Of a stretch of DNA of 64,000 bases, positions 12,643 through 60,699 are shown one piece after another. Position 1 is the stretch's first letter, and every line of letters starts with the position of its first letter. The notes under the pieces are model-generated. The model ran no database searches and was not told where the DNA came from. It saw only the letters and a program-made list of their open reading frames with translations. The translations under genes and the position numbers were made by a program. The stretch is from a virus (taxonomy: Duplodnaviria; Caudoviricetes), in the IMG/VR virus record IMGVR_UViG_3300009370_001552, positions 1 to 64,000 of that record; one strand, written 5' to 3'.

Positions 12643-13038
12643 TTACCAACTCACTTCCCAATCTTCAAACTCTGCTGCTATACAATCTACTTTATAATCT
12701 TTTCTTCCATCATCATCAAGTTGATCCTGTATAATGTTCTTTGCAGTATTTCTGATTCCATTTAATCCATGGGTAAGTCCAAGATTTCCATCACCCCCAC
12801 CTGCTCTGTATTTAGTTTCATTGTGCCATATATGTAAATTCATTTGAGATAGTACCACAATTGCCCTAACCATTTTTCCGTCTAAACCCAATTCTGTTAA
12901 GTCATGGACTATATCATCAATTTCTTGAGCATATTCCGCTTTATGTTCTGGAATAAACACTTCCTTTAATTGAATAATTGAAAGTCTATCTATTAACTCA
13001 CTAACAGTTGGTAAGTATTTTCTATCTATTGATTTCAT
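12643..13038 (-). CDS. Hypothetical helical protein
   Basis: 131 aa ORF overlapping its neighbours. ELIDRLSI..LK and NLHIWHNE motifs. Confidence 0.6.
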   Translation of the reverse strand: MKSIDRKYLPTVSELIDRLSIIQLKEVFIPEHKAEYAQEIDDIVHDLTELGLDGKMVRAIVVLSQMNLHIWHNETKYRAGGGDGNLGLTHGLNGIRNTAKNIIQDQLDDDGRKDYKVDCIAAEFEDWEVSW

Positions 13039-13252
13039 CGTATAACCTATTTTGAGTTTCTTGTTTATCTATTGTCTTATGGTGGTATAATGATAATTCT
13101 TCATTTGGTGGGAGGTGTGCGTATGTTTTACAACCTGTAATGTGTTCATGAACTGGTTTTACCCATCTTATTTTTTCATCATTACGAAATACTCTCGCTT
13201 GATAGTCGGGTGAGTTAATTATTGGAACTTTATATTTTACTTTGACTTTCAT
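13022..13252 (-). CDS. C-terminal half of a split/frameshifted GT2 glycosyltransferase
   Basis: PDYQARVFRN..IRW..PVHE..LYHHK is the usual C-terminal part of GT2 beta-1,4-glucosyltransferase-like proteins. Starts 2 nt after the stop of the N-half. Confidence 0.75.
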   Translation of the reverse strand: MKVKVKYKVPIINSPDYQARVFRNDEKIRWVKPVHEHITGCKTYAHLPPNEELSLYHHKTIDKQETQNRLYDEINR

Positions 13253-13254
13253 TT

Positions 13255-13779
13255 TTACAATATTTCTTCTTCAACAATTAAGTCCATTTTTTTCAAGAGT
13301 TTATATTCTTCACTTTCAGTATCCATAACCTTTTCATTATAAAGCTCAAATGGTGCAGTTATTTTCCAACCCCATTGTTTTATGTGTTGTTCTGTTATTC
13401 CATCAACTGTATTTACTCTTGGTATCCAAATTAAATCAGCATCATTCATTTCTAATATCGGTTTAAGTTGCTCTAATAATATTTCATTCGGGTACTCATC
13501 GGCATCCAGATGGAAAATATAATCACCGAAGCAATTAGCCTTCCCATAATTCTTTAACTCTGAAAAATCTCCATCAAAATCAAAATTTACTGAGCTGAAA
13601 GCTAATGGATCTTCGTAACTATATAGATAATCCCTGACCTCATCACTACCATTTTTACTATCTCTAACTATAACAATTTCATCTCCATCTCGTTTGTGTT
13701 TTAGTAGAAATGGAAGTAATTTTTGTATTTCTTCAAGTTCAGTGCAAACGGTAATGCAATAACTAATTTTCATTTTCAA
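13255..13779 (-). CDS. N-terminal half of a split/frameshifted GT2 glycosyltransferase
   Basis: KISYCITVC, IFHLDADE (DxD) and WIPRVN. Stops before the YQ-R/HE motifs. Confidence 0.8.
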   Translation of the reverse strand: MKMKISYCITVCTELEEIQKLLPFLLKHKRDGDEIVIVRDSKNGSDEVRDYLYSYEDPLAFSSVNFDFDGDFSELKNYGKANCFGDYIFHLDADEYPNEILLEQLKPILEMNDADLIWIPRVNTVDGITEQHIKQWGWKITAPFELYNEKVMDTESEEYKLLKKMDLIVEEEIL

Positions 13780-14281
13780 ATAACTCTATTTGTTTTTCAT
13801 ACTGTTTAGACTTTTCTTTGCCACTTAATGCTGATTCAAAGTCGTAGTTTAATAATTCTACTAATTTCATTTTATCAAGTTTAAATGTTTTGTATATATT
13901 TGGAAGTGTTTTCTCAAGTTTTTTTATGTTTTTGTTATAGAATACCTTTGGTGCTGAATATCCACTTGGAAACTTTAATGATTGATATTCAAACTTTCCA
14001 TCACTTTCATTCAATATACCTTTACTCTCCTTTATAATTTTCTTTAATTCAACTGGTGGGACTTCTGCTAAATCGAGACAGTGAGCTTTTTGATCCTTCA
14101 TACCACCAGCAACTGGCCATAAGTTTAATATCAAAATTAAATACCGTTCTTTAGATGCAGTTTTACTGTCATATCTGATTTCATAAACTACTCCTTGTTT
14201 TAAATCACGGGGTTTGGATTTTTTACGACCCTTATTCCCACCGATAATTTTACCTCTATGTAATCTGTAGTACTTAGCCAT
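13763..14281 (-). CDS. Hypothetical protein
   Basis: 172 aa ORF overlapping its neighbours; no recognised motif. Confidence 0.6.
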   Translation of the reverse strand: MAKYYRLHRGKIIGGNKGRKKSKPRDLKQGVVYEIRYDSKTASKERYLILILNLWPVAGGMKDQKAHCLDLAEVPPVELKKIIKESKGILNESDGKFEYQSLKFPSGYSAPKVFYNKNIKKLEKTLPNIYKTFKLDKMKLVELLNYDFESALSGKEKSKQYEKQIELFENEN

Positions 14282-14741
14282 TTCCTATATCCTTTGCAAA
14301 TCCCATGTCTTTACATGCTGTTAAAAATTCATATTGTCCATATTCTATTGCACCGTCTACATCAAGTTTTTCTGTGTAAAACTCATCATCTTTTCCTGGA
14401 ATTGGATAGGATTGTTTTTCATTTTCAGTAACCTCTACTACAGTTGCATATTTCCATACCCAATTATCTAATGATCCCTCTGGAAATATCATACCCATTT
14501 TACCCATATTTATAACGGATGGATACCAGTATATTTGTCTTTCTTCATCAAAAAACTCTAAATCTTTAACAAGTTTAGAAGTGGTTTCTAATAGTTTTGC
14601 TCTTTCTGTGTTGTCCTCTGTATAAAAGGTATTACTGGTAAATCCGCAATTAAAACAGATGAAGCTGCTAAATGTTTCCTGTATATCTTCAAAACAAGTA
14701 TCTTTATCATAACATACAGGACAATCTATTACTCTTTCCAT
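14274..14741 (-). CDS. Hypothetical zinc-finger protein
   Basis: CPVC...C...CFNCG cysteine pairs at the N-terminus. Confidence 0.6.
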   Translation of the reverse strand: MERVIDCPVCYDKDTCFEDIQETFSSFICFNCGFTSNTFYTEDNTERAKLLETTSKLVKDLEFFDEERQIYWYPSVINMGKMGMIFPEGSLDNWVWKYATVVEVTENEKQSYPIPGKDDEFYTEKLDVDGAIEYGQYEFLTACKDMGFAKDIGNG

Positions 14742-14742
14742 A

Positions 14743-16916: not shown

Positions 16917-16930
16917 ACTAATAAATATAA
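16917..16930 (-). promoter_or_regulatory. Recurrent TATTTAT promoter-like motif
   Basis: Minus strand TTATATTTATTAGT directly upstream of the RHH+endonuclease cassette. The same core occurs in six other intergenic gaps. Confidence 0.5.
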
Positions 16931-16967
16931 GAAAGTAGAAAAAAGTGTAGTTTTTTCTTCATTTAAT

Positions 16968-45132: not shown

Positions 45133-46436
45133 TTTAATTTGTCTATATTTTTATAATCCTCATCATCCCATATACTACTATACAAATGAATTCCATAAGA
45201 ATCTAATTTATATTCAAATATATCTTTATATAACTCCCAATCAACTGGACAATAACATTTCTTTGGTAAAACATACTCTTTTAATTCATATTCTATAACT
45301 AACTTAGTAAACAAATCTGGTCCCAATCCACCATGTGAAACAGAAGTTGACTTTAAAGAATCTATCCAATCAATCCAATCCTCAAATATTTGTTCTTCTT
45401 TATCCTGAACATATATTAAACAAGTACCAACATGATAATCAGATAATTTATGACCCTGTTCTGTAAATACAAATCTCTCAGTAAAATTTTGTGGTTGTAT
45501 ACATAAAACATCTAAATCAACATACAATCCACTCAACTTATAAAGTAAGTGTGCTCTAAATAAATTTGAAAAAGCTACAGGAGTATTTTTTGTATGTCCT
45601 TTTGTATAAGTAAAATATTGGTCAAGTGAAACTATATCATTTGCATTCTTTACAACTACACCGTTGGGAACTTCTATATCATCATATAACCAAAGATGAA
45701 ATTCATATCCATTCTTTATCCACGAATTAATACATAACTTTTCAAGATCACCTAACTCTGAACCATACCAAAATCCGTTAGCTTTTGGTCGTCTAAAGTG
45801 TGCAAAATAAGGACGACTTCTTTTGTGTCTATATGGCAAAGGTTCATCAGGTATATCTATCCCTAAAAATGGACACAATTTATCATATCCATCTCCACCA
45901 CAAATATCTAAAACTAAAAGTTCATCTGGTTTATCCTTGAAAAAATCTAATACTCTTTTTGTATGTTTCCGATGATAATCTCTCTCTGACTTTTCATCAA
46001 AATCTTCCCAATTACCCTCTTTTCTCGTTTCTTCAGATAATTGAGATCTATGTCGTTTATTACTTTCTACCCAATCATCTTCATTTCTTGTATTAAATAT
46101 AAACTTTGCATTTGGATAATTTTTATAAAGTGTTTCAAAATTATCAGATATCCAATTAGTGTCTAAATACACAACCCACTGGTTTAATAACTTATCACCA
46201 AGTCTGTCAAATTCTTCTGATAAATCCTTTGTTTGGTCTGTTATTCCCATTAAATCATAATTTTGTCTTTCTCTGGTTGCACCGCCACCGTGAATAACTT
46301 TGCCTTCATATCCTAAGATATCCCAAAATAGATGTAATAAAGAAACTGTTCCAGTTTTGTTAAATCCTATGAAAAATATCTTAAAAGATTTTCTTCTTGC
46401 AAGAGTAATTTTATCTAAAGTTTCTTCCATATCCAA
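45129..46436 (-). CDS. Sulfotransferase fused to a GT32 (DxD sugar-binding) glycosyltransferase
   Basis: N-domain IGFNKTGT...PNAKFI..R...DGYDKLCPFL. C-domain FWYG...CINSW...SNLFRAHLLYKLSGLYVDLD. Confidence 0.8.
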   Translation of the reverse strand: MDMEETLDKITLARRKSFKIFFIGFNKTGTVSLLHLFWDILGYEGKVIHGGGATRERQNYDLMGITDQTKDLSEEFDRLGDKLLNQWVVYLDTNWISDNFETLYKNYPNAKFIFNTRNEDDWVESNKRHRSQLSEETRKEGNWEDFDEKSERDYHRKHTKRVLDFFKDKPDELLVLDICGGDGYDKLCPFLGIDIPDEPLPYRHKRSRPYFAHFRRPKANGFWYGSELGDLEKLCINSWIKNGYEFHLWLYDDIEVPNGVVVKNANDIVSLDQYFTYTKGHTKNTPVAFSNLFRAHLLYKLSGLYVDLDVLCIQPQNFTERFVFTEQGHKLSDYHVGTCLIYVQDKEEQIFEDWIDWIDSLKSTSVSHGGLGPDLFTKLVIEYELKEYVLPKKCYCPVDWELYKDIFEYKLDSYGIHLYSSIWDDEDYKNIDKLK

Positions 46437-47635
46437 ATCGGTTCTCCAAATTTTTTATCATCTTTATTTTCAAGAGATTTTTCTGTCCATACAGAACCTT
46501 CATAAGTTTTTGCCGTTCCTGCCCCACCACTATTTGGTCGTTTAGCCATTTCCATTCCAATACAACCTTGATACTCTCCTAACTTAGATAGATAGTCATT
46601 CATTGGATTACAAATCTCTAACCAACCCCTATCGGTTGACCATTTAGAATTTGTATAAACATCACTAATATTTACCAATAAATATCCACCACTCTTAATA
46701 CTGCCCCATAAGTTACCCAAGGTCGTCTGTAAGAAATCTTTGTTCCAATCGTTTATATCTTTGTATCTAACCCAACTCTGTGTGTCGTCATAACTATAAC
46801 GCTCTACGCTAAAGTATGGTGGACTTGTAAATACTACATCAAAGTAATTTTCATAGTTAGAATAATCAAAATCTTCTGCTGGCTCACAATAAAAATCACA
46901 CTTTCTTTCATGTTCAAAAAATCCCAAGTGTTTCTCGTAAAACTCTGATTGTTCTTTGTATATTGGATGATTTTCTTTTCTTGGGTCTAAACCTACATAA
47001 TGTTTTCCATATTCACTTGCATAAAATCCTGCTAATCTATCTCCCCAACCAGCACTAAAATCAAGTATGGTTTCTGCCTTTAACATATCATAAATTGCCT
47101 TTGCAACATTTGGTTTGAACTGGGAACAGATATATTTTCGTAATGCCAACATCACCCGTAAAGTTGATTTATCTATCTTTGGAACTTTGAGTGAATATGC
47201 ACTTCCCATTAGTGAAGTCATGAACTTTAAACTTCCCCAAGTTCGTTTTGGACCAGGTGATACTGAACCATCTACCGACCATCTGTTTTCTATTTGAAAA
47301 TAATTACTACAAGTGTTTCCTACATTTAATCGTTTAAACATTAACTGTTTTCCATCATAATTCAAATTATAACTATACTTTGTGCCTTCTCTTGCATACC
47401 ACTCATCTTCTACAAGTATTTCATTCCATTTAGTTGCTTTTAATTTTTGAAAGTCTCTCCAAGCACCCTTTTCTGTTAAGTCTGGGTATGGTAGTTCATA
47501 GGTCATTGCGACGGTTGCAAGACTTTCCTTTACATCATCTTTTTCAAACGTTTCCTTTATGTAAGTCCAATCCTTTTCTTCTATGAATAGGTATGGATCC
47601 ATATTGTAAAACTTATCAAAATAATCTAAATACAT
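46415..47635 (-). CDS. DNA amino-methyltransferase-like protein (SAM motif before SPPY), paralog B
   Basis: QFKPNVAK, ILDFSAGWGDRLAGF and FTSPPYF. Confidence 0.75.
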   Translation of the reverse strand: MYLDYFDKFYNMDPYLFIEEKDWTYIKETFEKDDVKESLATVAMTYELPYPDLTEKGAWRDFQKLKATKWNEILVEDEWYAREGTKYSYNLNYDGKQLMFKRLNVGNTCSNYFQIENRWSVDGSVSPGPKRTWGSLKFMTSLMGSAYSLKVPKIDKSTLRVMLALRKYICSQFKPNVAKAIYDMLKAETILDFSAGWGDRLAGFYASEYGKHYVGLDPRKENHPIYKEQSEFYEKHLGFFEHERKCDFYCEPAEDFDYSNYENYFDVVFTSPPYFSVERYSYDDTQSWVRYKDINDWNKDFLQTTLGNLWGSIKSGGYLLVNISDVYTNSKWSTDRGWLEICNPMNDYLSKLGEYQGCIGMEMAKRPNSGGAGTAKTYEGSVWTEKSLENKDDKKFGEPIWIWKKL

Positions 47636-49384: not shown

Positions 49385-50301
49385 TTAAAAAAATCTTTCC
49401 AGACTTTGCTCTTCATCTACCGGTGATCCCCAGTCTAAACACTCATAAAATAAATTGAGTTTTTTAGTGAGTGCCCTATCATATATCTTGTCGTAATCCA
49501 TATTTTCCTTAATAAACTGCATAATTTCTGGTGGATCTTCATAACCTTTATATGCCACTACTGTTAATCCAAGTGGATTATTCTTTAGATACACCCATCG
49601 TATTTTATCTCCATTACTAATAAACCCATATTTTTTATCTCGTTTATAGTATCGTAGTAAATCATTATAACTTACTGATGCTCTTACATGAACTGGAATA
49701 CCTTTCTTTAATACTGTAAATACTGATGAGTTTTTATTGTCCTTTTTAATATATTTCCACATTCCCTTTACACCAGTTGGAGACGATATTTCATCCAAAT
49801 CTTTTAATCTCATATTTTTCTTAAATCTGGTTATTCTATGGTCTATTTTATCTCGTGGAACACTTGCCAAAATATCTTCCAATACATCACTTAATAACTG
49901 TCTAAATGCTGGTGCGAAATTACTACGCACCGTATCCAATCCCTTTACCATAGTCTTGTTTACCTGAACTCCATTATCACTAATGATTTTCATACCATAT
50001 CGTTTCTTGGTAATAAATAAACCGGACTTTGCTATAATTTCCTGTTTAATCTCAAATCTGTGTTTATCTAAATTACAAAACTTCTTTGCAAAATAATCAT
50101 ATGAATTATTTAAATATTCTTGAACTTCGGTTGCTATTTCATTTATTCGTTGTGCCATCATTACATCACTCATTTCCTTACCCTTAAATCTATGGTTAAT
50201 GAGTTTTAGTGCTGATACGAAAATGGAGTCAGTCAGGTGTCAATATAGATCACATGATCCATATTGACATTAGGCAGCCTCCTTATTTTTTTTATTTTCA
50301 T
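49385..50301 (-). CDS. polB: Family B DNA polymerase, C-terminal subunit (palm motif C + thumb), interrupted by a 5-nt frameshift in DTDS
   Basis: True start is ATG 50301: MKIKKIRRLPNVNMDHVIYIDT-stop. Resumes 5 nt later as DSIFVS...MSDVMM, then KKRYG, KGLDTVRS and YKGYED. Removing 5 nt gives 303 aa with YIDTDS. Confidence 0.85.
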
Positions 50302-50302: not shown

Positions 50303-51136
50303 CTATTCCTTAATTTCTATAAATTTACAACCAAGATGGTCTATTATTTCTTGTTTTCTTCTTTCATCTCGTTCTACTTGTTTTTTATGGAATGGTTCAT
50401 AATACTCTATAACCACGTTTTTTTCTTTATCATAACCATCTACAAAATATCCCAATTCTTTAATGTGATATTCACCACCGTTTTCAGCGTGTTGGAAATT
50501 GTATCCGTTTTCTTTTCCGTATTGTTCTATTAGTTTACAGGCTTCTGGGTTATATCCAGGCATCATTTGTCCACCATTAAAAACATTTCTCTCAATTCTC
50601 TTAATTGCAGATTTTCTCATTCTCCGCAATTCCTCCGTTCTCTTCGGGCGTTTATAGTTTCCACTATCTTCACCAGTCCGGATTTTTAATTTACTTACCT
50701 CTTTATTCATTTCATCTGCAATTTCAACACCAAACTTATCTACCCATACCTGGTAATAACTGCTACCATAATTTCCATTCCGTTCTCCACTCGCACCACG
50801 AGATTTGTTAAACTCATCAAATTGTTCTTTAGTCCAACCATACTTCTTTTTCTTATATTCAAATGAGTTGGAATGTGCTTGTTTTTCTCTATATTCATCC
50901 CATTTGATTTTTCCATCTATTTCACCGTGTTTTTTAATCATATTCTCTAAAGTATTAACTCGTTTACTTTGATATTTAATTTTAGCAACTTTAGCTTCAT
51001 CTAAATCCATTCCCTTAAATATAGTAAAGTATTCTATTGTTCCAGGTACTCTACTCAATCTCATTTTTTCAGCTTCTTCTTTTTCATAACCTTTGCCTAA
51101 CCAATGTTGTAGTGTTCTAGCACTTCCTCTACTCAT
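50303..51136 (-). mobile_element. Free-standing putative homing endonuclease (helical W/Y-x3-G repeats + HAENGGE nuclease) splitting polB
   Basis: C-terminal YNPEAC..FQHAENGGEY..VDGYDKEKNVVIEYYE..H domain shared with 16079..16774; sits between the two polymerase halves. Confidence 0.8.
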
Positions 51137-51178
51137 AATTTTTCTCCGTTAAGTTTTATATAGACACATCTGTATCTA

Positions 51179-51190
51179 TATATAAATATC
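51179..51190 (-). promoter_or_regulatory. Recurrent TATTTAT promoter-like motif
   Basis: GATATTTATATA in the 57-nt gap before the polB-splitting endonuclease. Confidence 0.5.
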
Positions 51191-51192: not shown

Positions 51193-52950
51193 TTAACCCA
51201 AAAAATCATCTGTTTCCAGTAAATCTTTTACTTTTATTTCCATTTTTCTACCGTTTCGTATTACATCAATTCTATTATTTTCGTGTAATTTTCTAACTTC
51301 ACCATTTTCCAATTCAACTTCAACGGGAGGTCCCAATTCACTATTATACTTATGATTTGCTATTTTTGCAGTGAACTTAATTAAATCCTGTCCTACTGTC
51401 GTCACAGAAGCCGCATTATCCAAATCATAAAATCTCCATCCCTGAAGTCCAAGTACGCCGTAAAGTGAATTAAGTAAAACCTTCTGGATATATTGCCGTC
51501 TATTAAAATACTCGTATCGTTCATCATTTCCTTCATCTGCAAATTTCCTTGCTAATTTTCTAAATTCCTTTCGTGTATCAAACCACTTGGATAGAATAGT
51601 TGAAATTAAACCTGCCTTATCCGTTTTATATAATATACCTTCACTTGAAATTGATACTTCATTATCATTAAAAAATGTCTCTAATTCTGTATTAGTTAAT
51701 TGTCCTTTCCTTTTCCCATTTAATATAATAGAATGTGTCTTTTTCTTCTTTCCTATAAAATCTTGAGCGTTCCACCCAACTACTTTTCCAAATTTTGTTT
51801 CTGGACTTATATTTAAGCTCATAATTATAGAAGGATACATACTTGTAATATCCAAATCATATACCCAGTCATGTTTACCCCGTTGTGGGCGTTTTACATA
51901 TGCACCTACAAACTTGTTATCTGTAAACTCACCCTTTTCTGGTTTATTAGGGGCAACGATATTCAATTTCTTCAAGTGAGTTAAAATTGCTCCTTCTAAA
52001 TATCTACTACTGAAATATATATCTTCATATGGAACATGACCAATATGACAAATACCTCGTGCAATGTCAATAAAATCTAATTTATCATCCAATTGTTTTA
52101 CTATTCTAACATCATGAATATTATATTCCACAAACTTTCTCAAATCATTTTCATATAAATCATTCAATGTTCCATCATAACTTATTTTAGTTGAACCAAC
52201 CTCTGTTTGACCTATATCATCCAATCTATATGATGGTCTTGATCCAAATGTAAAATCTTTATAGAGTAATAGATAATCTAATACACTTACCCCTGCTATT
52301 TTATATCGTTTAGTGTATTTACTATACATCACTTTTGATATCGGTGATAAATTGTCTGCAACACTTTGACCGAGAACTCTAATTGTTCTATTATATAAAT
52401 ATGGAATATCGAAACCATCTACATTCCAACCAGTAATTATAGTAGGTCGTAATTCTAAATATTTTTGGTAAAACCTCTGTAACAATTCATATTCCGTCTG
52501 ACAACTTTCTACTACACTCTTGCCAAATCCTGTTGTATCTAATGTCTTACGTTCATCTAATACTAAACAAGTGTAAACATTTCTGATATTATCCCACATA
52601 GCAATTGAAGTTATTTTATTCGGTGCCTTCATTGGGTCTGGAAATCCCTCTGTAACTTCACACTCAATATCAAATATGAATATCTTATGTCCAGTGGACG
52701 GTTCTTCACTTTTCCCATACATATCAATCAAAGTTCTCATTTCAGGATTTACATCACTTTCCCACAATCCCTGTGCAGTCTTATCCCATCTATATACTTT
52801 CTTTAATTTATCACCATATAAAGATGCAAACGTTCCATAATTATCTTTAATATAAGCATACTTTTTATATTGCGTTGTTATATGTCCGTTACGATCATCC
52901 CAAATGTGGACAACCCCCTTGAATGGTTCTACATAGATATTTTGATAAAT
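51193..52950 (-). CDS. polB: Family B DNA polymerase, N-terminal subunit (exonuclease, motifs A and B) with a Hint-like C-terminal tail; probable AUU start
   Basis: Exo motifs FDIEC, GWNVDGFD and YNIHD; DLDITSMYPS; QKVLLNSLYG. The frame extends 61 codons upstream of the annotated TTG start to (I)YQNIYVE, with no ATG/GTG after the stop at 52972..52974. Confidence 0.9.
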   Translation of the reverse strand: MYQNIYVEPFKGVVHIWDDRNGHITTQYKKYAYIKDNYGTFASLYGDKLKKVYRWDKTAQGLWESDVNPEMRTLIDMYGKSEEPSTGHKIFIFDIECEVTEGFPDPMKAPNKITSIAMWDNIRNVYTCLVLDERKTLDTTGFGKSVVESCQTEYELLQRFYQKYLELRPTIITGWNVDGFDIPYLYNRTIRVLGQSVADNLSPISKVMYSKYTKRYKIAGVSVLDYLLLYKDFTFGSRPSYRLDDIGQTEVGSTKISYDGTLNDLYENDLRKFVEYNIHDVRIVKQLDDKLDFIDIARGICHIGHVPYEDIYFSSRYLEGAILTHLKKLNIVAPNKPEKGEFTDNKFVGAYVKRPQRGKHDWVYDLDITSMYPSIIMSLNISPETKFGKVVGWNAQDFIGKKKKTHSIILNGKRKGQLTNTELETFFNDNEVSISSEGILYKTDKAGLISTILSKWFDTRKEFRKLARKFADEGNDERYEYFNRRQYIQKVLLNSLYGVLGLQGWRFYDLDNAASVTTVGQDLIKFTAKIANHKYNSELGPPVEVELENGEVRKLHENNRIDVIRNGRKMEIKVKDLLETDDFLG

Positions 52951-53014: not shown

Positions 53015-54649
53015 TTATGTGACGCATGTATCAGAATTACAGAATTTTTCTACAATCGCTTCATTGCCTTTGACTTGTCTAAATGATAAATGTTTTAATT
53101 TCTTCAATAATTTATTATATGTCTTTTCATCAATTTCTTCATATGGCATTTGTTTGTATGCTCCGAGTTCGTGTCGTGGTAAGAAAGAAACTGACTTTAA
53201 TTTATATTGGTAAAAATCTAATGCTGACTTAATTTGATCACCTTCTGTTTCTGGGTCAAATGTAATGGTAACTGAAACAGCATTGTCTGCCCAATGTTCG
53301 GCCATAAATGCTGCCAACTCTAATTGTTCCCATATTGAAACTGACTTTAATGTTTTTATTCCGTCACCCACATCAACTGGAACTTCAACTACTACCGTTG
53401 AATCTTCTTGACCTACTGCTGGTTCTATATGATACCCAGCACTCTTTAACGCTTTTATCAATGGACTATCGTTACCTAATCTAATTCGTCGTATGTAAAA
53501 ACGAGATTCTGGATAATGTATTCCAGGAGTTGCTCCAGCTAAAAGGCTGATTGAACCTGATGGTTTATTTGTAGAAAGTCTAATACTCCTTGGGATAGCA
53601 AACCAATCCGAATATATTTTATCATATTCTTTTAATGAATTGTATCCAGACCTTAACCAATCTTTCAATATAGATAATGAATTATTAGTTAAAAACTGTG
53701 TAACTCCACTTACAGAAGTTCCCACTCGTCTGTTTCGTAACATTACTCTGTTAGTTTCTGGCCAATGGGTGTCTAATAAAGTTACTGTCTTTGAATAAAG
53801 GTATGCATATTTTAATGACTTAATGAAATCTTCTTTACTTTCGTGTCTATCTGGAAATACTTCTACAAGATTGCATTTCTCGCCAGATTCTAACACGATT
53901 TCGCCACAGGGATTGGTCCCCATCGTTCTATTATCACTTACACCATTAGTCCCATCTCCCATTCTTTTATTATTATGAGCATTTTCTAACCAAATTAGTC
54001 CAGGTTCACCATTATTTTTAATTCGTTCTGCTATATCAGTATAATCCATACCAAGTTCTGCTAATACTGAATTGTTTGAAGCCCAACCGAAGTCAGCTCT
54101 TTCTGGATTCTTTTTATAATCTTTTAAGTCCAAAAATTGTTCAGTATTGTCTCCTGCTGCTAGCAATGCGCTGCGTCGCACATTTCCAGCCACGACAGCC
54201 TTTCCAATTAAATTAAATATATCAACTATATTTCGTTCACTAATTGGACTACCAATACTTTCTGTTAAAATCTCTGTTACTTTATCGTGTAATGCCTTTA
54301 ACGGCTTATACCCAGATGAAGTTCCACCAAATGTTTTTATAATGGCACCTTCCGGTCTGATTTTAGAATAATCAAATACTGGTCGTTGAGAGTTACCAAA
54401 GAAAGAATCTATAACATATCCTAAACTTTCTACCCATCCCTCTCTACTGTCTGGAACAGTAAAATTAAATTCGTTATGAGATGGTGATTTAATTGTTATT
54501 TGGTCTGCACCTTTTGTATCAAATCCCACACCAACTCCACAATTATGAACAACATTACCATTTCCCAAAACATATGTGTTATTTCCTGGTATGGTTAAAT
54601 CATAAAATAGTTCATCGTTTGGTATATAGTTTTTATTAATAATTTTCAC
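53015..54649 (-). CDS. nrdJ: Class II (adenosylcobalamin) monomeric ribonucleotide reductase, C-terminal precursor with IntC
   Basis: IntC then CGVGVGFD, GNVRRSA, GTNPCGEI (N-C-E), CNLVE, KPSGSIS and terminal FCNSDTC; GTG start overlapping the endonuclease TGA. Confidence 0.93.
   Translation of the reverse strand: MKIINKNYIPNDELFYDLTIPGNNTYVLGNGNVVHNCGVGVGFDTKGADQITIKSPSHNEFNFTVPDSREGWVESLGYVIDSFFGNSQRPVFDYSKIRPEGAIIKTFGGTSSGYKPLKALHDKVTEILTESIGSPISERNIVDIFNLIGKAVVAGNVRRSALLAAGDNTEQFLDLKDYKKNPERADFGWASNNSVLAELGMDYTDIAERIKNNGEPGLIWLENAHNNKRMGDGTNGVSDNRTMGTNPCGEIVLESGEKCNLVEVFPDRHESKEDFIKSLKYAYLYSKTVTLLDTHWPETNRVMLRNRRVGTSVSGVTQFLTNNSLSILKDWLRSGYNSLKEYDKIYSDWFAIPRSIRLSTNKPSGSISLLAGATPGIHYPESRFYIRRIRLGNDSPLIKALKSAGYHIEPAVGQEDSTVVVEVPVDVGDGIKTLKSVSIWEQLELAAFMAEHWADNAVSVTITFDPETEGDQIKSALDFYQYKLKSVSFLPRHELGAYKQMPYEEIDEKTYNKLLKKLKHLSFRQVKGNEAIVEKFCNSDTCVT
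54542..54649 (-). other. Split intein C-fragment (36 aa)
   Basis: MKIINK...FYDLTIPGNNTYVLGNGNVVHN followed by +1 Cys. Confidence 0.93.
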
Positions 54650-56115
54650 AATATTTTCCTCTCGTCTATCAATTTCAAAACTTTATTAAAATCTTGTTTT
54701 ACATCATTTTCCCAAATAACTAAAACATTATATCCCATATTTTCTAATTCATTTATTCTATTTCTATCAGTTAAATGAACAGATGAAAATGAAATATTAT
54801 CAGCAATGCTATCTGATTCGGTATATATTTCTGGATTCATATGCCAATAATCACCGAAAAACTCAACAATTAAATTTAACTCTGGTATATAAAAATCACA
54901 ACAATATGTACAATCTTTACCATGTACAAAATATTGATGAATTGTTTTTAGATATTCATTTGATATTACAGAATACACCTTATATTCCATTTTTGAAACT
55001 TTATTCATATTTTTCAAATTAATAAGTGATGCTCGTCTGCTATTATCACTTATTATTTTTTTAGCATCATTTATATTATATCCACGGTTTATCCAAAATT
55101 CCTTACTAAATGAACTTGTTTTAATCGCAAATTCATATGCTAACTTTTTAGATTCACTCATCGAATATCCAATATTTAGCCAATAATATATGCATTTACG
55201 TTGTTTACGTGCTCGTTTAGATTGGTTTTTATGAATTATATAAATACTTTCTTCGTCAGAAAATCCTAATCTGTTCCAATATTTTATATTGTTATAACTA
55301 CTATCAGATAATTTTTTTGACTTTTCTTCATATAATTCACTCCCACGTTTATTACCATATTTATTTACATAGTATTTTTTAGATGAAAAATCTTGATTTC
55401 CACTTATTATTTTTTTAGCCACACTTTCATCATATCCAAGTTTTATCCAATATTCTACACATCGAACATTATTACTTCGTTTAATATAATCGGCTTCATT
55501 ATTAGTGATGCCCCTTGCTTTAAAATACTGTGTAGTTGGATATCTATTAGCTTTAGATACCCTATCTACTGATTTATATTTTTTATATTCTTCAACGGAC
55601 CCCAACCTGGTAATTAAATTTTCTCGTGTTAATGAACACCTCGATTTTGCTTTAGTTGCCAATTTCTTCGCACTCAATATTGATTCACCGCGAATCTCCC
55701 AATATTCAGGATATTTATTACTGGTTGTGCGTTTTATATAACTAGAATACGTTATAGCGTCATCGTTTGAAAATCCATTTTCTATCCAAAATTTTGTAGT
55801 TTTAACAAGCGTATTAGTAATAGCTTTATGTTTAATTTTATTAAAAACATCACTTAAATTTCTAATTTTCCAAAATATAGGATTTTTACTATCAGATAGA
55901 ATCCTATCCTTTCGTAATCGAAGTTTATTGTTAATTTCATCTTCCGAATGTCCTTTTATTTTCCACTGGTTTATCCAATACCCCTCACTACCTCTACTAT
56001 CTGATGTAGCACATTTTTTACATACCGTCTCGTTAAAAATTGAATTCTCCAACTGATATTTAGTAGAATATATTTGAGTTGCCCCACAATTATTACAGTT
56101 TTTTTTATGTTTCAT
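54646..56115 (-). mobile_element. Free-standing Vsr/DUF559-like homing endonuclease with tandem W-x3-G helical repeats, splitting nrdJ
   Basis: SKME...CDFYIPELNLIVEFFGDYWH...D..R...GYNVLVIWE; about 9 repeats; N-terminal CNNC/CKKC. Confidence 0.85.
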
Positions 56116-56167: not shown

Positions 56168-56908
56168 TTAATTTTCATTAGAAATATAAAAATTCTCTAT
56201 GTTATCATTACCATTAATATCTTTAGCTTCTACCCACCCCCTGTTTATAGTTAAAAATAAATGGTCTTCTGTACATCTAACAGTACTACCATCTTCAAAT
56301 TCCAACTCAATTATTTTCTTATCCGACACCTCATTTTTTAATACTTTGTCTGGATATATAAAAGAATATCTTTTAGTTTCTTCATTAAACGATAGTACTT
56401 TGTCATCAACTGTTATATCTTTAATTTTTTTATTTCCACCATCAGTTAAAATTAAAGTGTCTGGATGAAAACACATCAACATATCCATAGCAAATACAAA
56501 TGGAAATGATAGACTATCTTTTATATTTTCTGTACTAATAAAATTACAATTGAATAGTGCGGGAGTGAGTTTCTTCTTTGTAATAATATCTGTACCCATT
56601 GCCCACAAACCACGTCCGGGAGGAAGTAATTTCATATTAAACATTCTATCATACATTTCTTGTGCACTTCGTTGAGCTTGCCATGGATTCCAACCCAATC
56701 TATGTTTTTCAATCCACTCTTTCTGAATTGTATATGTGCCCTCTACAACTCTACGAACTGTTTCCCACCATTGTTCATTTTTTCCATCTTCCTTTATACG
56801 AGAATAGGTTCTCATATATACTAAATGTCCCAAACCATTAAATCCAAATGGTTCTTTTTTTCTTTTATAATTTTCTATAAAATTTTTACTTAAAACGAAT
56901 TTTTCCAT
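56168..56908 (-). CDS. nrdJ: Class II ribonucleotide reductase, N-terminal precursor with IntN
   Basis: YMRTYSR, E.W.ET.RRV, LPPGRGLWAMG and ALFNC, then the intein from Cys146. Confidence 0.93.
   Translation of the reverse strand: MEKFVLSKNFIENYKRKKEPFGFNGLGHLVYMRTYSRIKEDGKNEQWWETVRRVVEGTYTIQKEWIEKHRLGWNPWQAQRSAQEMYDRMFNMKLLPPGRGLWAMGTDIITKKKLTPALFNCNFISTENIKDSLSFPFVFAMDMLMCFHPDTLILTDGGNKKIKDITVDDKVLSFNEETKRYSFIYPDKVLKNEVSDKKIIELEFEDGSTVRCTEDHLFLTINRGWVEAKDINGNDNIENFYISNEN
56171..56473 (-). other. Split intein N-fragment (101 aa)
   Basis: CFHPDT block A, CTEDHLFLT block B (TxxH), RGWVEAKDI, then stop. Confidence 0.93.
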
Positions 56909-56955
56909 ATAAACTTTTACTCCTTATATCCATTTTCTATAACTTCCGCATCTCA

Positions 56956-56970
56956 CTAATATAAATATAA
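56956..56970 (-). promoter_or_regulatory. Recurrent TATTTAT promoter-like motif
   Basis: TTATATTTATATTAG upstream of nrdJ. Confidence 0.5.
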
Positions 56971-56973
56971 CAC

Positions 56974-58338
56974 TTATTCAAATCCACCCATATCTTTATC
57001 ATTATTATACTTATTTGATAACTGTTTTCTTAAATATTCTTCACTATTATCCATTTTCTTTTGAGTAACCTGACCGTCTTGTGTATTTGCTTCGTAAATC
57101 TGAATACTACCGTTGTTTGTGTTTATACTCGCTGGAAATGTAATACCATCAACTCCAAATCTATTTTTAATCACATGGAAACGACCAGTATTTGCTATTT
57201 TATCTTCTACTTTTCTACTCATAGATACAACAAAATCTGCAATCATTACCTTTGCATATGATTCTGCTACTTTACTGGCATCAATTACATCTTCCTCTAA
57301 TGATGACCGGTTGGCCTGACTGGCAGTCCATATTGGCATTTCATATTCACCTGCAAGTCCTCTTAAATCTTCATAAATACTTTCTAATACGTGTCGTTTT
57401 TCACTACCAACTCCACGGAGAATATCTGCATAATCTACCAAAATTAAATCTATATTTGTTCCCTGTAATTCTATCTGTTTTAGATGTGATGATAGAGTTT
57501 GAACTGTTGCACCTTTAGTTGGAAAATATTTGATCAACAGAGTCCCCTTTAATTCTGCAATTTTCTTCTTTACATCATCTTTATAGTATTTTATATTTGC
57601 TGTAGTCACTCCACTAAATACAGTATCAAATCGTAATCCTACATAATTTTGGTTTAACTCTAATGTATAATACACTACATTTAATCCATTTTTTACTGCA
57701 TTTGCACCCAGTATTTGCAAAAACCATGATTTTCCAATTCCAGCTGGGGCGACTACCACTCCCAATTCACCTGCTCCTAACCCACCATCCATTATTTCAT
57801 CTATTGGATCCCAACCAGTTTTTACGGTGTCTCTGGCCGAGTTTGCAAGTCGTTCTTCTATTCCACTAATATACTCATGTCCTAATTCTCTATCACCACC
57901 AGCTTTCATTGCTTCGTCTATTAGATTTTTAATCTCATCATATTTACCAATTTCTAATAAATCAACACTATCCATGATTGCAGCTTTAATGACTTGATTT
58001 TTACAGAACTCTAATATCTGTTCTTGTATAAATGGTAAATCAGTAGACTCTATGTATCTCCAACTTTCTTTTAGATTTTCTACTACTGCCATCTTTAGAA
58101 TATCATTATCTAAATCATCTATTTTTACTTTTAATACTTCTAATGTCGGGGCTGTTTTATACTCAAAGAAATAATCTCGTATGGTTCTGGATAGAAATCG
58201 GTTTGCGTCACTCTCAAAATATGATGGTTCTAATATATCACTTATAGTTTGTAGGAACTTTTTATCACCGAGTAATGATGATATAATTTTACATTGGAAT
58301 GTTTTTCCAAAAATTTGTAAAGTAGATTTATCATTCAT
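56974..58338 (-). CDS. Replicative helicase (DnaB / T4 gp41-like)
   Basis: GELGVVVAPAGIGKS Walker A, YYTLEL, ILVDYAD, WTASQANR and VIKNRFG. Confidence 0.92.
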   Translation of the reverse strand: MNDKSTLQIFGKTFQCKIISSLLGDKKFLQTISDILEPSYFESDANRFLSRTIRDYFFEYKTAPTLEVLKVKIDDLDNDILKMAVVENLKESWRYIESTDLPFIQEQILEFCKNQVIKAAIMDSVDLLEIGKYDEIKNLIDEAMKAGGDRELGHEYISGIEERLANSARDTVKTGWDPIDEIMDGGLGAGELGVVVAPAGIGKSWFLQILGANAVKNGLNVVYYTLELNQNYVGLRFDTVFSGVTTANIKYYKDDVKKKIAELKGTLLIKYFPTKGATVQTLSSHLKQIELQGTNIDLILVDYADILRGVGSEKRHVLESIYEDLRGLAGEYEMPIWTASQANRSSLEEDVIDASKVAESYAKVMIADFVVSMSRKVEDKIANTGRFHVIKNRFGVDGITFPASINTNNGSIQIYEANTQDGQVTQKKMDNSEEYLRKQLSNKYNNDKDMGGFE

Positions 58339-58436
58339 TTATTTTTTTCTCTATAATTGCTATGGTGCAATGTTGTGCTCCTCCGTGACTGGAATGTATA
58401 TCTCCTTAAATTAGTGGAAATGTAAGTTTGTTTCAT
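58335..58436 (-). CDS. Unannotated 33-aa leader-like micro-ORF coupled to the helicase
   Basis: MKQTYISTNLRRYTFQSRRSTTLHHSNYREKNK; GAAAGG SD, ATGA overlap with the helicase start, TATTTAT motif at 58447..58456. Confidence 0.45.
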   Translation of the reverse strand: MKQTYISTNLRRYTFQSRRSTTLHHSNYREKNK

Positions 58437-58483
58437 AACAACCTTTCTATAAATAGTAATCACAATTCCTAAAACCAATTATT

Positions 58484-59440
58484 TTATTGCCAGAAATCGT
58501 GTTCCACCAGTCCTGCTGGGTTCTTTGCCTTCTCTATTCTTGCTTCCATTATTTCAAAATACTCTTTTTCTCGTTCTATCATAATGTAATTTCGTTCACC
58601 CATTACTGCTGCAATTCCTGTTGTTCCGCTTCCTGCGAATGGGTCTAATACTATATCACCTTTTCTACTCCCCAAAACCAATAAATATGAGAATAAGGTT
58701 AGTGGTTTGCAAGTTGGATGTATATTTTTTCCATCTTTAATACCATCACTCTTTTCTCGTTTTGAAGCTTTCGGCACAATTAAAAACGGAAATGTCTTTT
58801 GGACTTCTTCTGGTAATTCATTAAAATATCGTTTCCACCATTCGTCTAAACTGAAGTATCTACTGAAGTCTCCTTCATCTCCGTATCCTGGATCCTCTGC
58901 AAATCCTTCGTCTTTATGTGCCCAACCACCACTATACATATCGTTTGTATTCTGGTATGAACGACCACCACTTGATTTTGTGGTTTTACCTTGATCAAGT
59001 ATTCTATCACTCACTAATAAGTTTGCTGCAAACCTACCCATCGGTGATGCATCTGCAGTGTCGTTTTCTTCACTCTTAAATCCACTTGTCTTGAATACAT
59101 TATCTTCTGAACGTGGTTGTCTTTTAGTGGTTTTTCTCATAGGTGGTTCATCCACTTCAACTATTTTAGTTGCCTTCTTTCCCCATAGATTTCTACCATC
59201 ACTCATTGGTTGGGTTTCACCTGGTTTACCATATCGAATATCCATTCTGCCATAACCACCTTGTGGAGTATCATTCATTCCTGTGAATGGAATACGGCAG
59301 TCGTCGAGCCACGTACAAGAACGTCCCTGTGTTGTAAATTGTGCTAAATTAGGTTTCTTAAATTTACCACTCGGTAATCTTTCTATTTTTAGTTCTATAC
59401 CTTTATAGTTTATTTTATATGTTCGGTCTTTTTCCCGCAT
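58484..59440 (-). CDS. C-terminal (SAM-binding) half of a split N4/N6 DNA methyltransferase
   Basis: WLDDCRIP, GRFAANL, HPTCKP and VLDPFAGSGTTG; no DPPY motif. Confidence 0.85.
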   Translation of the reverse strand: MREKDRTYKINYKGIELKIERLPSGKFKKPNLAQFTTQGRSCTWLDDCRIPFTGMNDTPQGGYGRMDIRYGKPGETQPMSDGRNLWGKKATKIVEVDEPPMRKTTKRQPRSEDNVFKTSGFKSEENDTADASPMGRFAANLLVSDRILDQGKTTKSSGGRSYQNTNDMYSGGWAHKDEGFAEDPGYGDEGDFSRYFSLDEWWKRYFNELPEEVQKTFPFLIVPKASKREKSDGIKDGKNIHPTCKPLTLFSYLLVLGSRKGDIVLDPFAGSGTTGIAAVMGERNYIMIEREKEYFEIMEARIEKAKNPAGLVEHDFWQ

Positions 59441-59541
59441 GTATTTCGTGCTCCCATAATCTTATTATTTCATAACCGTTATTCGGGGAAATAAAAATTT
59501 GTATTGCAATTCTTACACTTCACTTTTATTTTTTTCTTCAT
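59415..59541 (-). pseudogene. Internally deleted Vsr-like endonuclease remnant
   Basis: MKKKIKVKCKNCNTNFY (CxxC head) abutting, in another frame, NNGYEIIRLWEHEIH (Vsr/DUF559 terminal motif; compare GYNVLVIWENDV in 54646..56115). Confidence 0.7.
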
Positions 59542-59662
59542 AGTATTTCTCCATACGCTTTTTCCTTATCTTTTCTGCGTTTTTGAGATAATATTTACGA
59601 GACTTTATTCTATTGGCCTCTTTTCGTTCTTCTTCTGTTTTATATTTTAACTTTCTTCCCAT
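59513..59662 (-). CDS. Unannotated 49-aa basic micro-protein (MGRK family)
   Basis: MGRKLKYKTEEERKEANRIKSRKYYLKNAEKIRKKRMEKY; paralog of 61402..61584. Confidence 0.7.
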   Translation of the reverse strand: MGRKLKYKTEEERKEANRIKSRKYYLKNAEKIRKKRMEKYYEEKNKSEV

Positions 59663-59671
59663 ATTATCTCT

Positions 59672-59686
59672 CTACTATAAATATAA
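59672..59686 (-). promoter_or_regulatory. Recurrent TATTTAT promoter-like motif with upstream inverted repeat
   Basis: TTATATTTATAGTAG, preceded by TTAC-TTTTTT-GTAA. Confidence 0.5.
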
Positions 59687-59712
59687 GTAATTACAAAAAA
59701 GTAATAACATTT

Positions 59713-60699
59713 TTACTCATTTTCCCAAATAATTTCATCTAAATCATATTGAGATTTTAACTCATCTGTTATTTCAAATAATGCTGTATCTTCTTCCACA
59801 AATCGGGATCTTATTTGTTCTACATAACCACCCTTTTCTAATGGTTTCATAGCAACTATGACGCTCTCCCAGGCTGGCTTTACCTGGTAACCAGCATACG
59901 CACCTTCCGCTCTTCGTGCCATTTCTGTTGCTGGTAATGTAATATCCACTTCACCACTTGCTTGATTATTTGTTGGTGAAAATGCAAAGTCTTTACCTGT
60001 TCCTAATCCAGATGACCTTTTACCGATTACTTCACGTTCTGCTCCCATAAATAATTTCTCAAGATTTTTAGCAATATGTTTCTTTTCTAAATCATCTTTT
60101 ATATCATCTTCGTCATAACCAATAACTTTCTTTATCACTTCCCACTTTTCTAATGTGGGTATTGCAATTCCCCAACTATCATCTGTTCTAATTTCTTTTC
60201 GTAAATAACCACAAGCATTAAACCCACATTCTTTATTTATCTGTGCTTTAGTTTTACCACTTTCTTTATATAGTTCTGCAAGTTTATCTTTAATCTCTAT
60301 AAGTGAAGTTCTTTGACGACCTGCATGTTTGTCGAAATGTTTGCCCACGTTCATTGCTTTCGGGAAACCAGTGGCATAACTCCAGGCAATAGGAGTAAAA
60401 CTTATATTAAATCCAGCATCTTCTAATAATATACACATTCTACTGTGAACATCAGAACGAGGTGCCGACATTACAAATGCTAATCCACCTGGTTTTAGAA
60501 CACGTACACATTCCTTAAATATCTCTATATCTGGGAGGGCTTTATCCCAATCTTTGCCCATGAAGGAAATCGAATACGGGGGATCACACGCCATAAGATC
60601 GACACTATTATCTGAAAGTTCTTTTAATTTCTCTTTACTATCCCCAAGTATCAACTGACTTTTAACTAATCCACCAATTTCTCCTTGTGTTTTTTTCAT
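59713..60699 (-). CDS. N-terminal (catalytic DPPY) half of a split N4/N6 DNA methyltransferase with an internal HTH-like insert
   Basis: LILGDS, ACDPPY, RVLKPGG, YATGFPK and KPAWES.IVAMKP; no FxGxG motif. Confidence 0.85.
   Translation of the reverse strand: MKKTQGEIGGLVKSQLILGDSKEKLKELSDNSVDLMACDPPYSISFMGKDWDKALPDIEIFKECVRVLKPGGLAFVMSAPRSDVHSRMCILLEDAGFNISFTPIAWSYATGFPKAMNVGKHFDKHAGRQRTSLIEIKDKLAELYKESGKTKAQINKECGFNACGYLRKEIRTDDSWGIAIPTLEKWEVIKKVIGYDEDDIKDDLEKKHIAKNLEKLFMGAEREVIGKRSSGLGTGKDFAFSPTNNQASGEVDITLPATEMARRAEGAYAGYQVKPAWESVIVAMKPLEKGGYVEQIRSRFVEEDTALFEITDELKSQYDLDEIIWENE

Follow-up and report, generated by a model that had tools for sequence, protein, structure and literature searches.

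The genes most like those reported here are genes broken by homing endonuclease genes (HEGs). NrdA of Aeromonas phage Aeh1 is split by mobE, and the tails that arose with this insertion are oppositely charged and essential for ribonucleotide reductase (RNR) activity; a parallel to split inteins was drawn in that work, and more cases were predicted (PMC3045599). The MobA element has C-terminal and N-terminal extension (CTE and NTE) tails and shows HEG swapping, HEG loss and secondary fusion, and the MobA/gene 60 bypass cassette, which protects the invaded genome from its own nuclease, was called unique (bioRxiv 10.1101/2022.08.31.505936). Dassa et al. described an intein-less SbcD-like gene that is split by a Vsr-like HEG and has 25 and 9 extra residues at the break, and they reported that split inteins are complementary in charge, with a negative N-intein and a positive C-intein (PMC2677866). 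In Aeromonas phages 25 and 44RR, the DNA polymerase gp43 is divided into 43A and 43B, and these halves are reported to co-purify and to be active (review, PMC2988022). Here we compare with these systems four split genes from a single stretch of viral DNA, positions 1 to 64,000 of the IMG/VR record IMGVR_UViG_3300009370_001552, the whole of which (64,000 nucleotides) is referred to as the window: nrdJ, the DNA polymerase gene polB, a DNA methyltransferase (MTase) gene and a GT2 glycosyltransferase gene.

An initial annotation of the window, made from its sequence alone, had taken all four genes for one recurring pattern, in which essential genes invaded by endonucleases break at appended or inserted mini-domains into an acidic-tailed and a basic-headed half that re-join electrostatically. 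The reading that we prefer, with a probability of about 60%, is that four HEGs inserted into coding sequence, that these insertions stand at differing stages of decay, and that three different repairs deal with them. The nrdJ halves would be ligated by trans-splicing. At polB, MTase and GT2, the inserted cassette supplies a C-terminal extension with an acidic end, a stop, and a HEG, which may be intact, a wreck or gone. Its last part is a new start that abuts or overlaps the 3' end of the HEG and opens a basic N-terminal extension. Such end-pieces would correspond to the element-borne CTE and NTE tails of Aeh1 NrdA-a/b and T4 gp39/gp60, and would let two polypeptides act as one enzyme without covalent repair, with charge complementarity presumably aiding their meeting. 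The polB C-half would additionally require recoding across a 5-nucleotide gap, next to a hairpin that has its 5' arm within the coding sequence of the head.

Anatomy and relatives of the four split genes

The initial annotation was right that the four genes are truly split: relatives hold intact alleles of polB, MTase and GT2, and the nrdJ halves each have a match to the Pfam family Intein_splicing. A survey of intact against split alleles found the site intact in ~70 polB, ~40 MTase and ~50 GT2 loci of IMG/VR, and found split polB and GT2 in further lineages. Three features of HEG-split genes, namely intact relatives, a HEG or its remnant at the break, and extensions of opposite charge that intact homologues lack, occur together in polB, MTase and GT2; the GT2 break has no HEG in the window, and an HNH-like HEG lies at the same site in L096-98 (L and P numbers are our labels for related contigs and proteins). 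Endonuclease invasion as the event behind the breaks is borne out by sites that are uninterrupted in relatives and by added end-pieces that are part of the inserted DNA. At three of the four breaks (nrdJ, polB and MTase) a HEG or its wreck is present, and the C-half start abuts or overlaps the element, as had been noted. The description of the invaded genes as essential suits polB and perhaps nrdJ; it does not suit GT2, nor the MTase, which is one of three in the window. The pieces of polB, all on the minus strand as are those of the other three genes, are as follows.

51193-52950, minus strand: polB N-half, with the exonuclease and motifs A and B (alignment with the intact Mel-JY01 PolB); its 45-residue tail is coded by 51196-51330
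50303-51136, minus strand: free-standing endonuclease of 277 residues in the polB gap (phrog_22677; weak DUF559 match; a 53% identical homologue at the same place in L231)
50236-50301, minus strand: polB head open reading frame (ORF) of 22 codons, with its TGA at 50233-50235; the 5-nucleotide gap TGACT is 50231-50235, the putative take-off codon ACC 50236-50238, the putative landing codon ACT 50231-50233, and the hairpin arms 50256-50269 and 50238-50251
49385-50230, minus strand: polB C body, which begins with the second half of motif C and extends to the thumb (alignment with Mel-JY01; Pfam DNA_pol_B profile positions 259-444)

The N-half matches the 848-residue intact PolB of Microcystis phage Mel-JY01, the nearest named PolB relative (47-48% identity), up to residue 479 of that protein, and the next 45 residues are without counterpart there. 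Its start is probably the ATT at 52948-52950, which lies 8 nucleotides behind an AAGAGG Shine-Dalgarno sequence and at which the relative P0001 has Met followed by near-identical residues; with this start, ORF finders call the N-half 62 codons short. The endonuclease in the gap has a Vsr-like C end and shares phrog_22677 with the endonuclease in the nrdJ gap. The head ORF begins two bases past the endonuclease stop, and its last residues are the first half of motif C. The initial annotation had paired an acidic tail end with a basic head start, and both of these are real; however, the head is a separate 22-codon ORF and not the contiguous beginning of the C-half. The TGA stop falls within motif C, and the remainder of the motif resumes 5 nucleotides on in a different frame, which is open from the landing site and has its first ATG 19 codons in.

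The uninterrupted polB loci (60-78% identity; 49 of them distinct at the break site) and Mel-JY01 have neither tail nor head. A split polB with homologous tail and head is found in five lineages: the window, the five contigs L008-L012 (91% identity), L235 (~85%), L231/L234 (47%) and LR756508, which is L002 (37%). The content of the gap differs among them, the HEGs being of different kinds in the window and L231, in L008, and in L002. The endonuclease type of the window also occurs in L231, with added NUMOD3 motifs, another Vsr-like ORF occupies the gap in L008, L235 has a 27-nucleotide stump, and LR756508, a 484-kb uncultured phage, has 4 kb of other genes. RNA-library contigs cover parts of polB, and one of them bridges the tail of the N-half and the start of its HEG.

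Several further observations were made at polB. The Vsr-like ORF in the gap of L008 (L008:7560-8036) has no ATG, GTG or TTG start and begins within the T run that ends the polB tail; it could be a gene in decay, or a frameshift from the tail could give access to it. The split polB of LR756508.1 (L002:4770-7823 and L002:10829-12694) also contains a full intein in motif B and a second full intein in motif C, the latter within ~5 nucleotides of the position of the 5-nucleotide gap of the window. An 11-bp palindromic hairpin directly follows the stop of the polB N-half (51150-51190, minus strand), and part of it resembles motif-C codons in another frame. A reading of this out-of-frame copy as a relic of the target site was set aside: the palindrome is absent from the matching place in L008. 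Two parts of the 277-residue endonuclease gene (50318-50372 and 50466-50554) recur, with a few changes, in further contigs that come from the same metagenomes and have similar depth, which suggests that this endonuclease family is multi-copy or shared among co-occurring phages.

The MTase gene is broken between its catalytic and its S-adenosylmethionine (SAM)-binding parts.

59713-60699, minus strand: MTase N-half of 328 residues, the catalytic DPPY part (PF01555 profile positions 1-89); its native end is near residue 295 and its 33-residue acidic tail is coded by 59716-59814
59418-59712, minus strand: remains in the MTase gap, with a basic ORF of 49 residues (59513-59662) and the wreck of a Vsr-like HEG (zinc-finger-like N end 59482-59520, C-terminal nuclease motif 59418-59480)
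58484-59440, minus strand: MTase C-half of 318 residues, the SAM-binding part (PF01555 profile positions 134-220); its head of ~27 residues, 59360-59440, has a net charge of +4

The two halves are the two ends of one Pfam N6_N4 MTase domain, and likewise of single mycobacteriophage MTases (those of DrDrey and Quico were aligned). Across the break site the gene is uninterrupted in the close relative L088 and in the ~40 IMG/VR loci. The tail counts of the initial annotation (33 residues with 3 K/R and 11 D/E, net -8) are right, and those for the first 38 residues of the C-half (10 K/R and 4 D/E) also match a direct reading. The gap measures 272 nucleotides. Residues 28-36 of the C-half repeat a short native segment that also closes the N-half, and the matches of the two halves overlap by 2-20 nucleotides in intact relatives. 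The wreck in the gap is an internally deleted Vsr-like endonuclease, the C end of which overlaps the C-half start by 23 nucleotides, and the 49-residue basic ORF has a homologue in L088 that stands directly before an HNH_3 endonuclease at another locus. A complex prediction for the tail (residues 284-328) and the head (residues 1-48), run without alignments, gave an ipSAE of 0.01 against a mark of 0.34, with partner pLDDT <50, and weighs neither for nor against their pairing.

The 49-residue ORF belongs to a family of very basic small ORFs of 49-60 residues, with members at 59513-59662 and 61402-61584 of the window and at L088:12163-12318. In L088 an HNH_3 endonuclease stands as an insertion between the gene for the sliding clamp and the one that follows, and the copy overlaps its start. 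Neither copy in the window has an intact nuclease alongside, and one adjoins the Vsr-like wreck in the MTase gap.

At GT2, the two pieces are separated by next to nothing.

13255-13779, minus strand: GT2 N piece of 174 residues (Pfam Glycos_transf_2; alignment with the intact GT2 of immuto and Mel-JY01); its 34-residue tail, 13258-13359, has a net charge of -6
13022-13252, minus strand: GT2 C piece of 76 residues (its tblastn matches lie in the intact GT2 genes that the N piece also hits); its 11-residue head, 13220-13252, has a net charge of +4

Both pieces match single GT2 genes of Flavobacterium phage immuto and of Mel-JY01. Where these two phages have a short loop, the window has an insertion of ~40 extra residues that runs through tail, stop, 2 nucleotides and head in different frames. 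The allele series at this site is rich: the ~50 IMG/VR loci, immuto and Mel-JY01 are without the insertion; L093 has it in one ORF, re-fused or never broken; L096-98 are split and have between the halves an HNH-like endonuclease, the 3' end of which runs into the same head; L094 and L095 are split with a tRNA-Tyr (GTA) exactly between the tail stop and the head start (L094:3036-3116 and L095:3036-3116); and the window is split with nothing between the halves. Nucleotide identity between the window and these alleles is 0.45-0.70 over the first 300 nucleotides, 0.8-1.0 around tail and head, and then drops, a gradient that we read as the co-conversion pattern expected from homing. An AlphaFold2 model of the unbroken L093 protein gives the core a pLDDT of 90 and renders the insertion (pLDDT 57-67) as a helix plus a short hairpin, at whose turn the break falls. 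The earlier idea of an inserted mini-domain at the break thus stands in part: at GT2 the break falls in a predicted hairpin region and the domain is uninterrupted in L093, at the low confidence of this model.

Are the halves of MTase, and perhaps GT2, genes at all? One alternative is that both are recent pseudogenes, killed by the insertion, whose halves are open by chance. The MTase split was found only in the window among 80 related loci, two further MTase-like genes are present in the window (a complete N6_N4 MTase directly upstream and another at 46415-47635), and neither MTase nor GT2 is essential for replication. On the other hand, the MTase halves are open over 328 and 318 codons in DNA of 31% G+C although the HEG between them is already wrecked, which is a mild argument against a dead gene. 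Both GT2 halves stay open and conserved across three or more split lineages, with C pieces that are 74-95% identical to that of the window, and at polB, the gene looked at in this respect, an RNA-library contig spans the tail and the HEG start. We regard the pseudogene explanation as unlikely and continue with the reading in which the halves are functional.

The fourth gene, nrdJ, differs from the others in kind. Its N- and C-terminal intein fragments are abbreviated IntN and IntC.

56168-56908, minus strand: nrdJ N-extein and IntN (Pfam RNR_Alpha and Intein_splicing/Hint); the IntN of 101 residues, 56171-56473, has Cys1 and TxxH
54646-56115, minus strand: Vsr/DUF559-like homing endonuclease of 489 residues between the nrdJ halves (Pfam DUF559 E 4.9e-6; phrog_22677)
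53015-54649, minus strand: IntC and nrdJ C-extein; the IntC of 36 residues, 54542-54649, ends in HN with Cys as the +1 residue (Pfam Intein_splicing profile positions 122-155)

The annotation of nrdJ as a true split intein is upheld by Intein_splicing matches on both fragments (E 1.9e-10 at the IntN), Cys1, TxxH and HN followed by Cys. The ORF 53015-54649 begins with the last 34 positions of the Intein_splicing profile and continues as RNR. The features of a fractured gene, which are Cys or Ser at position 1 with TxxH, HN followed by Cys, Ser or Thr, and a free-standing HEG between the halves, occur together in nrdJ and in no other of the four genes. By sequence, nrdJ is thus a classical fractured gene in which a split intein flanks a Vsr-like HEG. 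The gp41-type helicase of the 91%-identity lineage (L088:1987-4563, corresponding to window 56974-58338) has one contiguous intein and one split intein with a Vsr-like endonuclease remnant between its IntN and IntC, and the helicase of the window is whole; nrdJ is also interrupted in the L088 lineage, but elsewhere than in the window.

The genome in which these splits lie is that of a T4-like phage, with 31% G+C and genes on the minus strand throughout 12-62 kb, among them replication genes for a gp41-type helicase, clamp loader, sliding clamp and PolB. Its sequence was recovered from marine and seawater metagenome runs of two studies, and a megablast search with 12.5 kb found no close DNA relative in phage records.

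Charged end-pieces and the intein ancestry of the polB tail

The contrast in charge was measured on 83 non-overlapping minus-strand ORFs as the charge of the first k residues of the downstream piece (head) minus that of the last k residues of the upstream piece (tail), with the 74 other adjacent gene pairs of the window as background. With k=10 the score is 7 for MTase, 9 for polB and 8 for GT2, against a background mean of 0.47 (sd 2.7) in which 0/74 pairs reach 7. Random triples match the observed charge sum with p <1e-5 at k=8-12 and 0.0015 at k=15; the choice of k was post hoc, and the result is stable across the tested range. The contrast is therefore stronger in these three pairs than at random adjacent gene ends. 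At nrdJ it is ordinary, from the 13th to the 31st percentile of adjacent pairs, with an IntC of net charge -1, so the acidic-tail and basic-head pattern that had been claimed for all four genes applies to three. Tails and heads have 45 and 14 residues in polB, 33 and 27 in MTase and 34 and 11 in GT2, with net charges of -3/+5, -8/+4 and -6/+4. Over its full 45 residues the polB tail is only -3, its acidity being confined to the last 10 residues.

These three genes also lack the residues of a working intein. The first residue of the polB tail is not the Cys or Ser of an IntN and varies (Pro, Thr, Arg or Lys), the His of TxxH is replaced, and the heads of polB, MTase and GT2 pass directly into native sequence without HN and a nucleophile. 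The polB tail is under purifying selection. Among close lineages its ratio of non-synonymous to synonymous substitution rates (dN/dS) is 0.13-0.25, compared with 0.06 for the polymerase body, and its dN equals that of the body; its identity to the window is 41% in L231 and 33% in LR756508/L002, where the polymerase body has ~50% and ~37%.

The origin of this tail was traced with a profile built from four tails and searched against 1.84 billion representative proteins, which returned 37 proteins at E<=1e-3, nearly all of them matched at the extreme C-terminus (C-termini were read in all 37, and 20 were scanned against Pfam). They fall into three groups. The first consists of genuine split-intein N fragments with Cys1 and TxxH, in which the match covers Intein_splicing profile positions ~36-93. 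The second comprises about ten clusters (50% identity) of PolB N-halves in which the native residues before the tail are those of the window too, without Cys or Ser and with the block-B His replaced. In the third, two DnaE N-parts (P0023 and P0037) and one PolA N-part (P0024) end in a polB-type tail without a Pfam intein match, so other polymerase families may use the same device. Applied to all 83 window proteins, the profile enlarged with these proteins gives its two highest scores to the polB tail (68.5 bits) and to the distal half of the nrdJ IntN (19.7 bits), and <=1.8 bits to the rest. In a profile search of the PDB, the Pab polC intein ranked second (E 0.15), colinear over the same region of the tail, and the fourth rank was a 173-residue chain titled only 'DNA-directed DNA polymerase' (E 0.44), also colinear.

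Single-sequence tests are weaker. Smith-Waterman comparisons of the polB tail with individual IntN sequences were weakly positive against shuffled sequences (z ~2.2-2.7, p 0.02-0.035), tblastn with a 50-residue polB tail query found no match in phage records, and Pfam at E<=10 found no intein match in the polB, MTase and GT2 tails or the MTase head. It is the profile search that identifies the polB tail as intein-derived: by its alignment, the tail is the distal lobe of an IntN, keeping ~45 of ~100 residues and lacking the first ~55 with Cys1 (block A) and the block-B His. To the eye, the polB head in turn resembles the first strand of IntC in nrdJ and P0016. Most likely, polB is held together by a dead half-intein through the kind of charged strands that steer real split inteins. 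A broader proposal, which we put forward tentatively and rate at somewhat less than even odds, is that a portable non-splicing half-intein module, combining the distal lobe of IntN, devoid of Cys1 and the block-B His, with the opening strand of IntC, has replaced splicing in fractured polymerase genes (at least ten PolB clusters, and also DnaE and PolA), accompanied in polB by interchangeable HEGs and a 5-nucleotide hop.

Given this ancestry, are the pairs of polB, MTase and GT2 all degenerate split inteins that keep the last IntN and the first IntC strand? Such an origin would explain their shared polarity and the similarity of their heads and of the last 12 residues of their tails. Their acidic N-halves and basic C-halves follow the polarity reported for split inteins, negative on the N strand and positive on the C strand (PMC2677866), and Aeh1 NrdA and gp43A/B of Aeromonas phage 25, with tails that are not of the intein kind, show the opposite one; the heads of GT2 and MTase, like that of polB, resemble by eye the IntC start of P0016 and nrdJ. 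The tails of GT2 and MTase, however, have no detectable intein ancestry: the enlarged tail profile is silent on their N pieces, Pfam is empty in their tails and heads at E<=10, shuffle tests show no similarity of their tails to IntN, and the GT2 tail is predicted to be mostly helical. We therefore hold a common intein origin of all three to be improbable, and retain the reading in which intein descent belongs to polB and the other two tails came with their own elements.

A different alternative is that tails and heads are neutral by-products, the tails being read-through to the first stop and the heads beginning at the first usable ATG, with halves that rejoin through native interfaces and with charges that reflect the composition of element ends and Lys-rich starts. 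Much that bears on this alternative also weighs against the reading that we prefer, and is gathered here. Lys-rich starts are common in this AT-rich genome, whose proteins are basic on average at their beginnings (mean charge of the first 10 residues +0.8). For the MTase tail, no homologue was found among 5.8 billion proteins (word-based search) or in 80 related loci; this tail may be recent, unselected read-through, and the window has two further MTase-like genes. The GT2 insertion is poorly modelled, at the pLDDT of 57-67 given above. In the polB tail dS is 0.3-0.4, below the 0.9-1.7 of the body, and thus part of the tail's conservation could stem from recent exchange or from constraint at the DNA or RNA level. 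That tails bind heads, and that the split enzymes are active, we infer from these sequences. Finally, the Aeh1 halves heterodimerise without their tails, which are needed for a later assembly step (PMC3045599); the image of a clasp may thus mislead, even for tails that the enzyme cannot do without.

Other evidence argues against mere by-products. The polB tail has the dN of the body and a dN/dS of 0.13-0.25, and is recognisable in lineages of 37-47% identity. The same type of tail ends many independent PolB N-halves. The GT2 tail and head persist through HEG replacement, loss and fusion, the three pairs are each more extreme than all 74 background pairs, and deletion of the tails abolished RNR activity in Aeh1 (PMC3045599). 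For these reasons we consider neutral end-pieces rather unlikely and prefer tails and heads that serve the split enzymes.

The 5-nucleotide gap in polB

A separate question is how the ribosome would reach the polB C body, whose frame differs from that of the head. The gap TGACT, its in-frame UGA, a Thr codon at the putative take-off (ACC or ACT) and the Thr codon ACT at the putative landing site 5 nucleotides on are kept in four lineages (45-91% amino-acid identity), and synonymous codon changes flank the gap on both sides. Across the gap, a 3.9-kb DNA contig recovered in a second study has the identical sequence, and a 153-nucleotide RNA-library contig also retains the 5 nucleotides, which argues against their being removed from the RNA. 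In all four lineages the take-off and landing codons are matched and a stop comes directly after take-off, as in translational bypass of the T4 gene 60 type, and a +5 hop would restore motif C exactly.

The take-off codon marks the end of a hairpin that has coding sequence of motif C as its 3' arm and part of the head ORF as its 5' arm, so that it lies 5' of the take-off codon, unlike the in-gap stem-loop of gene 60. Its minimum free energies (kcal/mol) are -20.0 for the window and -25.4 for L231, with -11.6 and -12.0 for L008 and L235; the same 78 nucleotides of 49 intact alleles, from which the hairpin is absent, have a mean of -9.2 (sd 3.0). Over the four sequences, 87.5% of cells are paired, compared with 12-45% when the partners are slid, and compensatory double changes number three pairs by the alignment count and four in the per-lineage folds. 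Another hairpin of 4-5 bp, seen by eye at the landing site, was set aside as too weak to claim.

We lean towards the view that the gap is crossed by a +5 ribosomal hop of peptidyl-tRNA(Thr), as these conserved sequence features suggest. Two points detract from it. In two of the four lineages (-11.6 and -12.0 kcal/mol) the hairpin is just marginally more stable than the intact-allele controls. Moreover, termination followed by reinitiation at a CUG or UUG that overlaps the UGA could take the place of the hop; this variant, which would leave a peptide of 22-30 residues carrying half of motif C, seems to us distinctly less probable, and explanations other than hop or reinitiation share the rest of the odds. 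The polB head has a dN/dS of 0.38. Its partial constraint as RNA bears on the clasp idea as well: the basic head may serve recoding, as a nascent-peptide signal and as a hairpin arm, and not binding, which would again speak against the proposed pairing of tail and head.

Comparison with described systems

What, then, does the window add to the described systems? The idea of element-borne charged tails is already published, and MTase and GT2 are further cases of it. The splicing-independent route that the initial annotation had placed alongside split inteins exists but is not new: work on Aeh1 NrdA had already demonstrated it and had put it forward as a general one (PMC3045599). Nor does a single mechanism cover the four genes, as had been supposed: nrdJ has a split intein, polB a dead intein fragment, and GT2 and MTase tails without detectable intein ancestry. 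The contribution of the window is in part one of breadth, with three tail cases beside a true split intein in one genome, and its allele series (intact, HEG-bearing, HEG-lost and re-fused) makes the life cycle of the cassette readable. New here are the dead half-intein that forms the polB tail, the occurrence of such tails across polymerase genes, the 5-nucleotide gap linked to the polB tail, and the GT2 cassette in its forms with HEG, with tRNA, empty and re-fused, together with its co-conversion gradient; the literature searched contained no relevant description of non-splicing intein remnants as docking tails, which is not proof of absence. The polB case links two known repairs, in that a split intein would be able to lose its chemistry and survive as a docking device that is also found on other polymerases, and its half-intein would explain why the polarity here obeys the split-intein rule. 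If confirmed, such end-pieces would be small natural heterodimerising tags.

Compared with the fractured genes of Dassa et al. (PMC2677866), nrdJ fits fully and shares the same Vsr-like HEG family. In contrast, polB, MTase and GT2 are without Cys1/Ser1, the TxxH His and the terminal HN, and thus cannot splice by known chemistry.

Aeh1 NrdA-a/NrdA-b (PMC3045599) is alike in that the gene is undivided in relatives and broken by a free-standing HEG, in that neither RNA nor protein splicing takes place, and in that the tails were proposed as a general antidote to fragmentation. It is unlike the window genes in four respects. There the N-half tail is basic and the C-half tail acidic, the reverse of the polarity here; its tails have no database matches, whereas the polB tail of the window is an intein fragment common to many genes; its function is proven and that of the window genes is predicted from sequence; and its tails serve the dimerisation of heterodimers, not the joining of two halves.

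The split gp43 of Aeromonas phages (43A/43B) is likewise a PolB of T4 type made as two polypeptides, and a HEG separates its halves. The split there precedes motif B, whereas here it lies between motif B and motif C, and the ends of phage 25 gp43A/B have the opposite charge polarity and do not resemble inteins.

To our knowledge, translational bypassing has been represented for decades essentially by one gene, and the closest counterpart of the polB gap is T4 gp39/gp60. As with MobA of T4, the window has a HEG cassette in an essential replication gene, an NTE start that overlaps the HEG 3' end, a short repeat at the junction (HomR in T4, and seen here at the MTase), and a HEG that is replaced by other nuclease types or lost, or a gene that is re-fused. 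As in gene 60, the coding gap has a stop just after the take-off codon and lies early in the downstream half. The target in the window is polB motif C and not a topoisomerase, and its gap has 5 nucleotides compared with 20-50, which leaves no room for an in-gap take-off stem-loop, the conserved structure lying 5' of the take-off codon. If the hop is true, the polB gap would be an independent second HEG-linked translational bypass, and a short, tractable model of bypassing.

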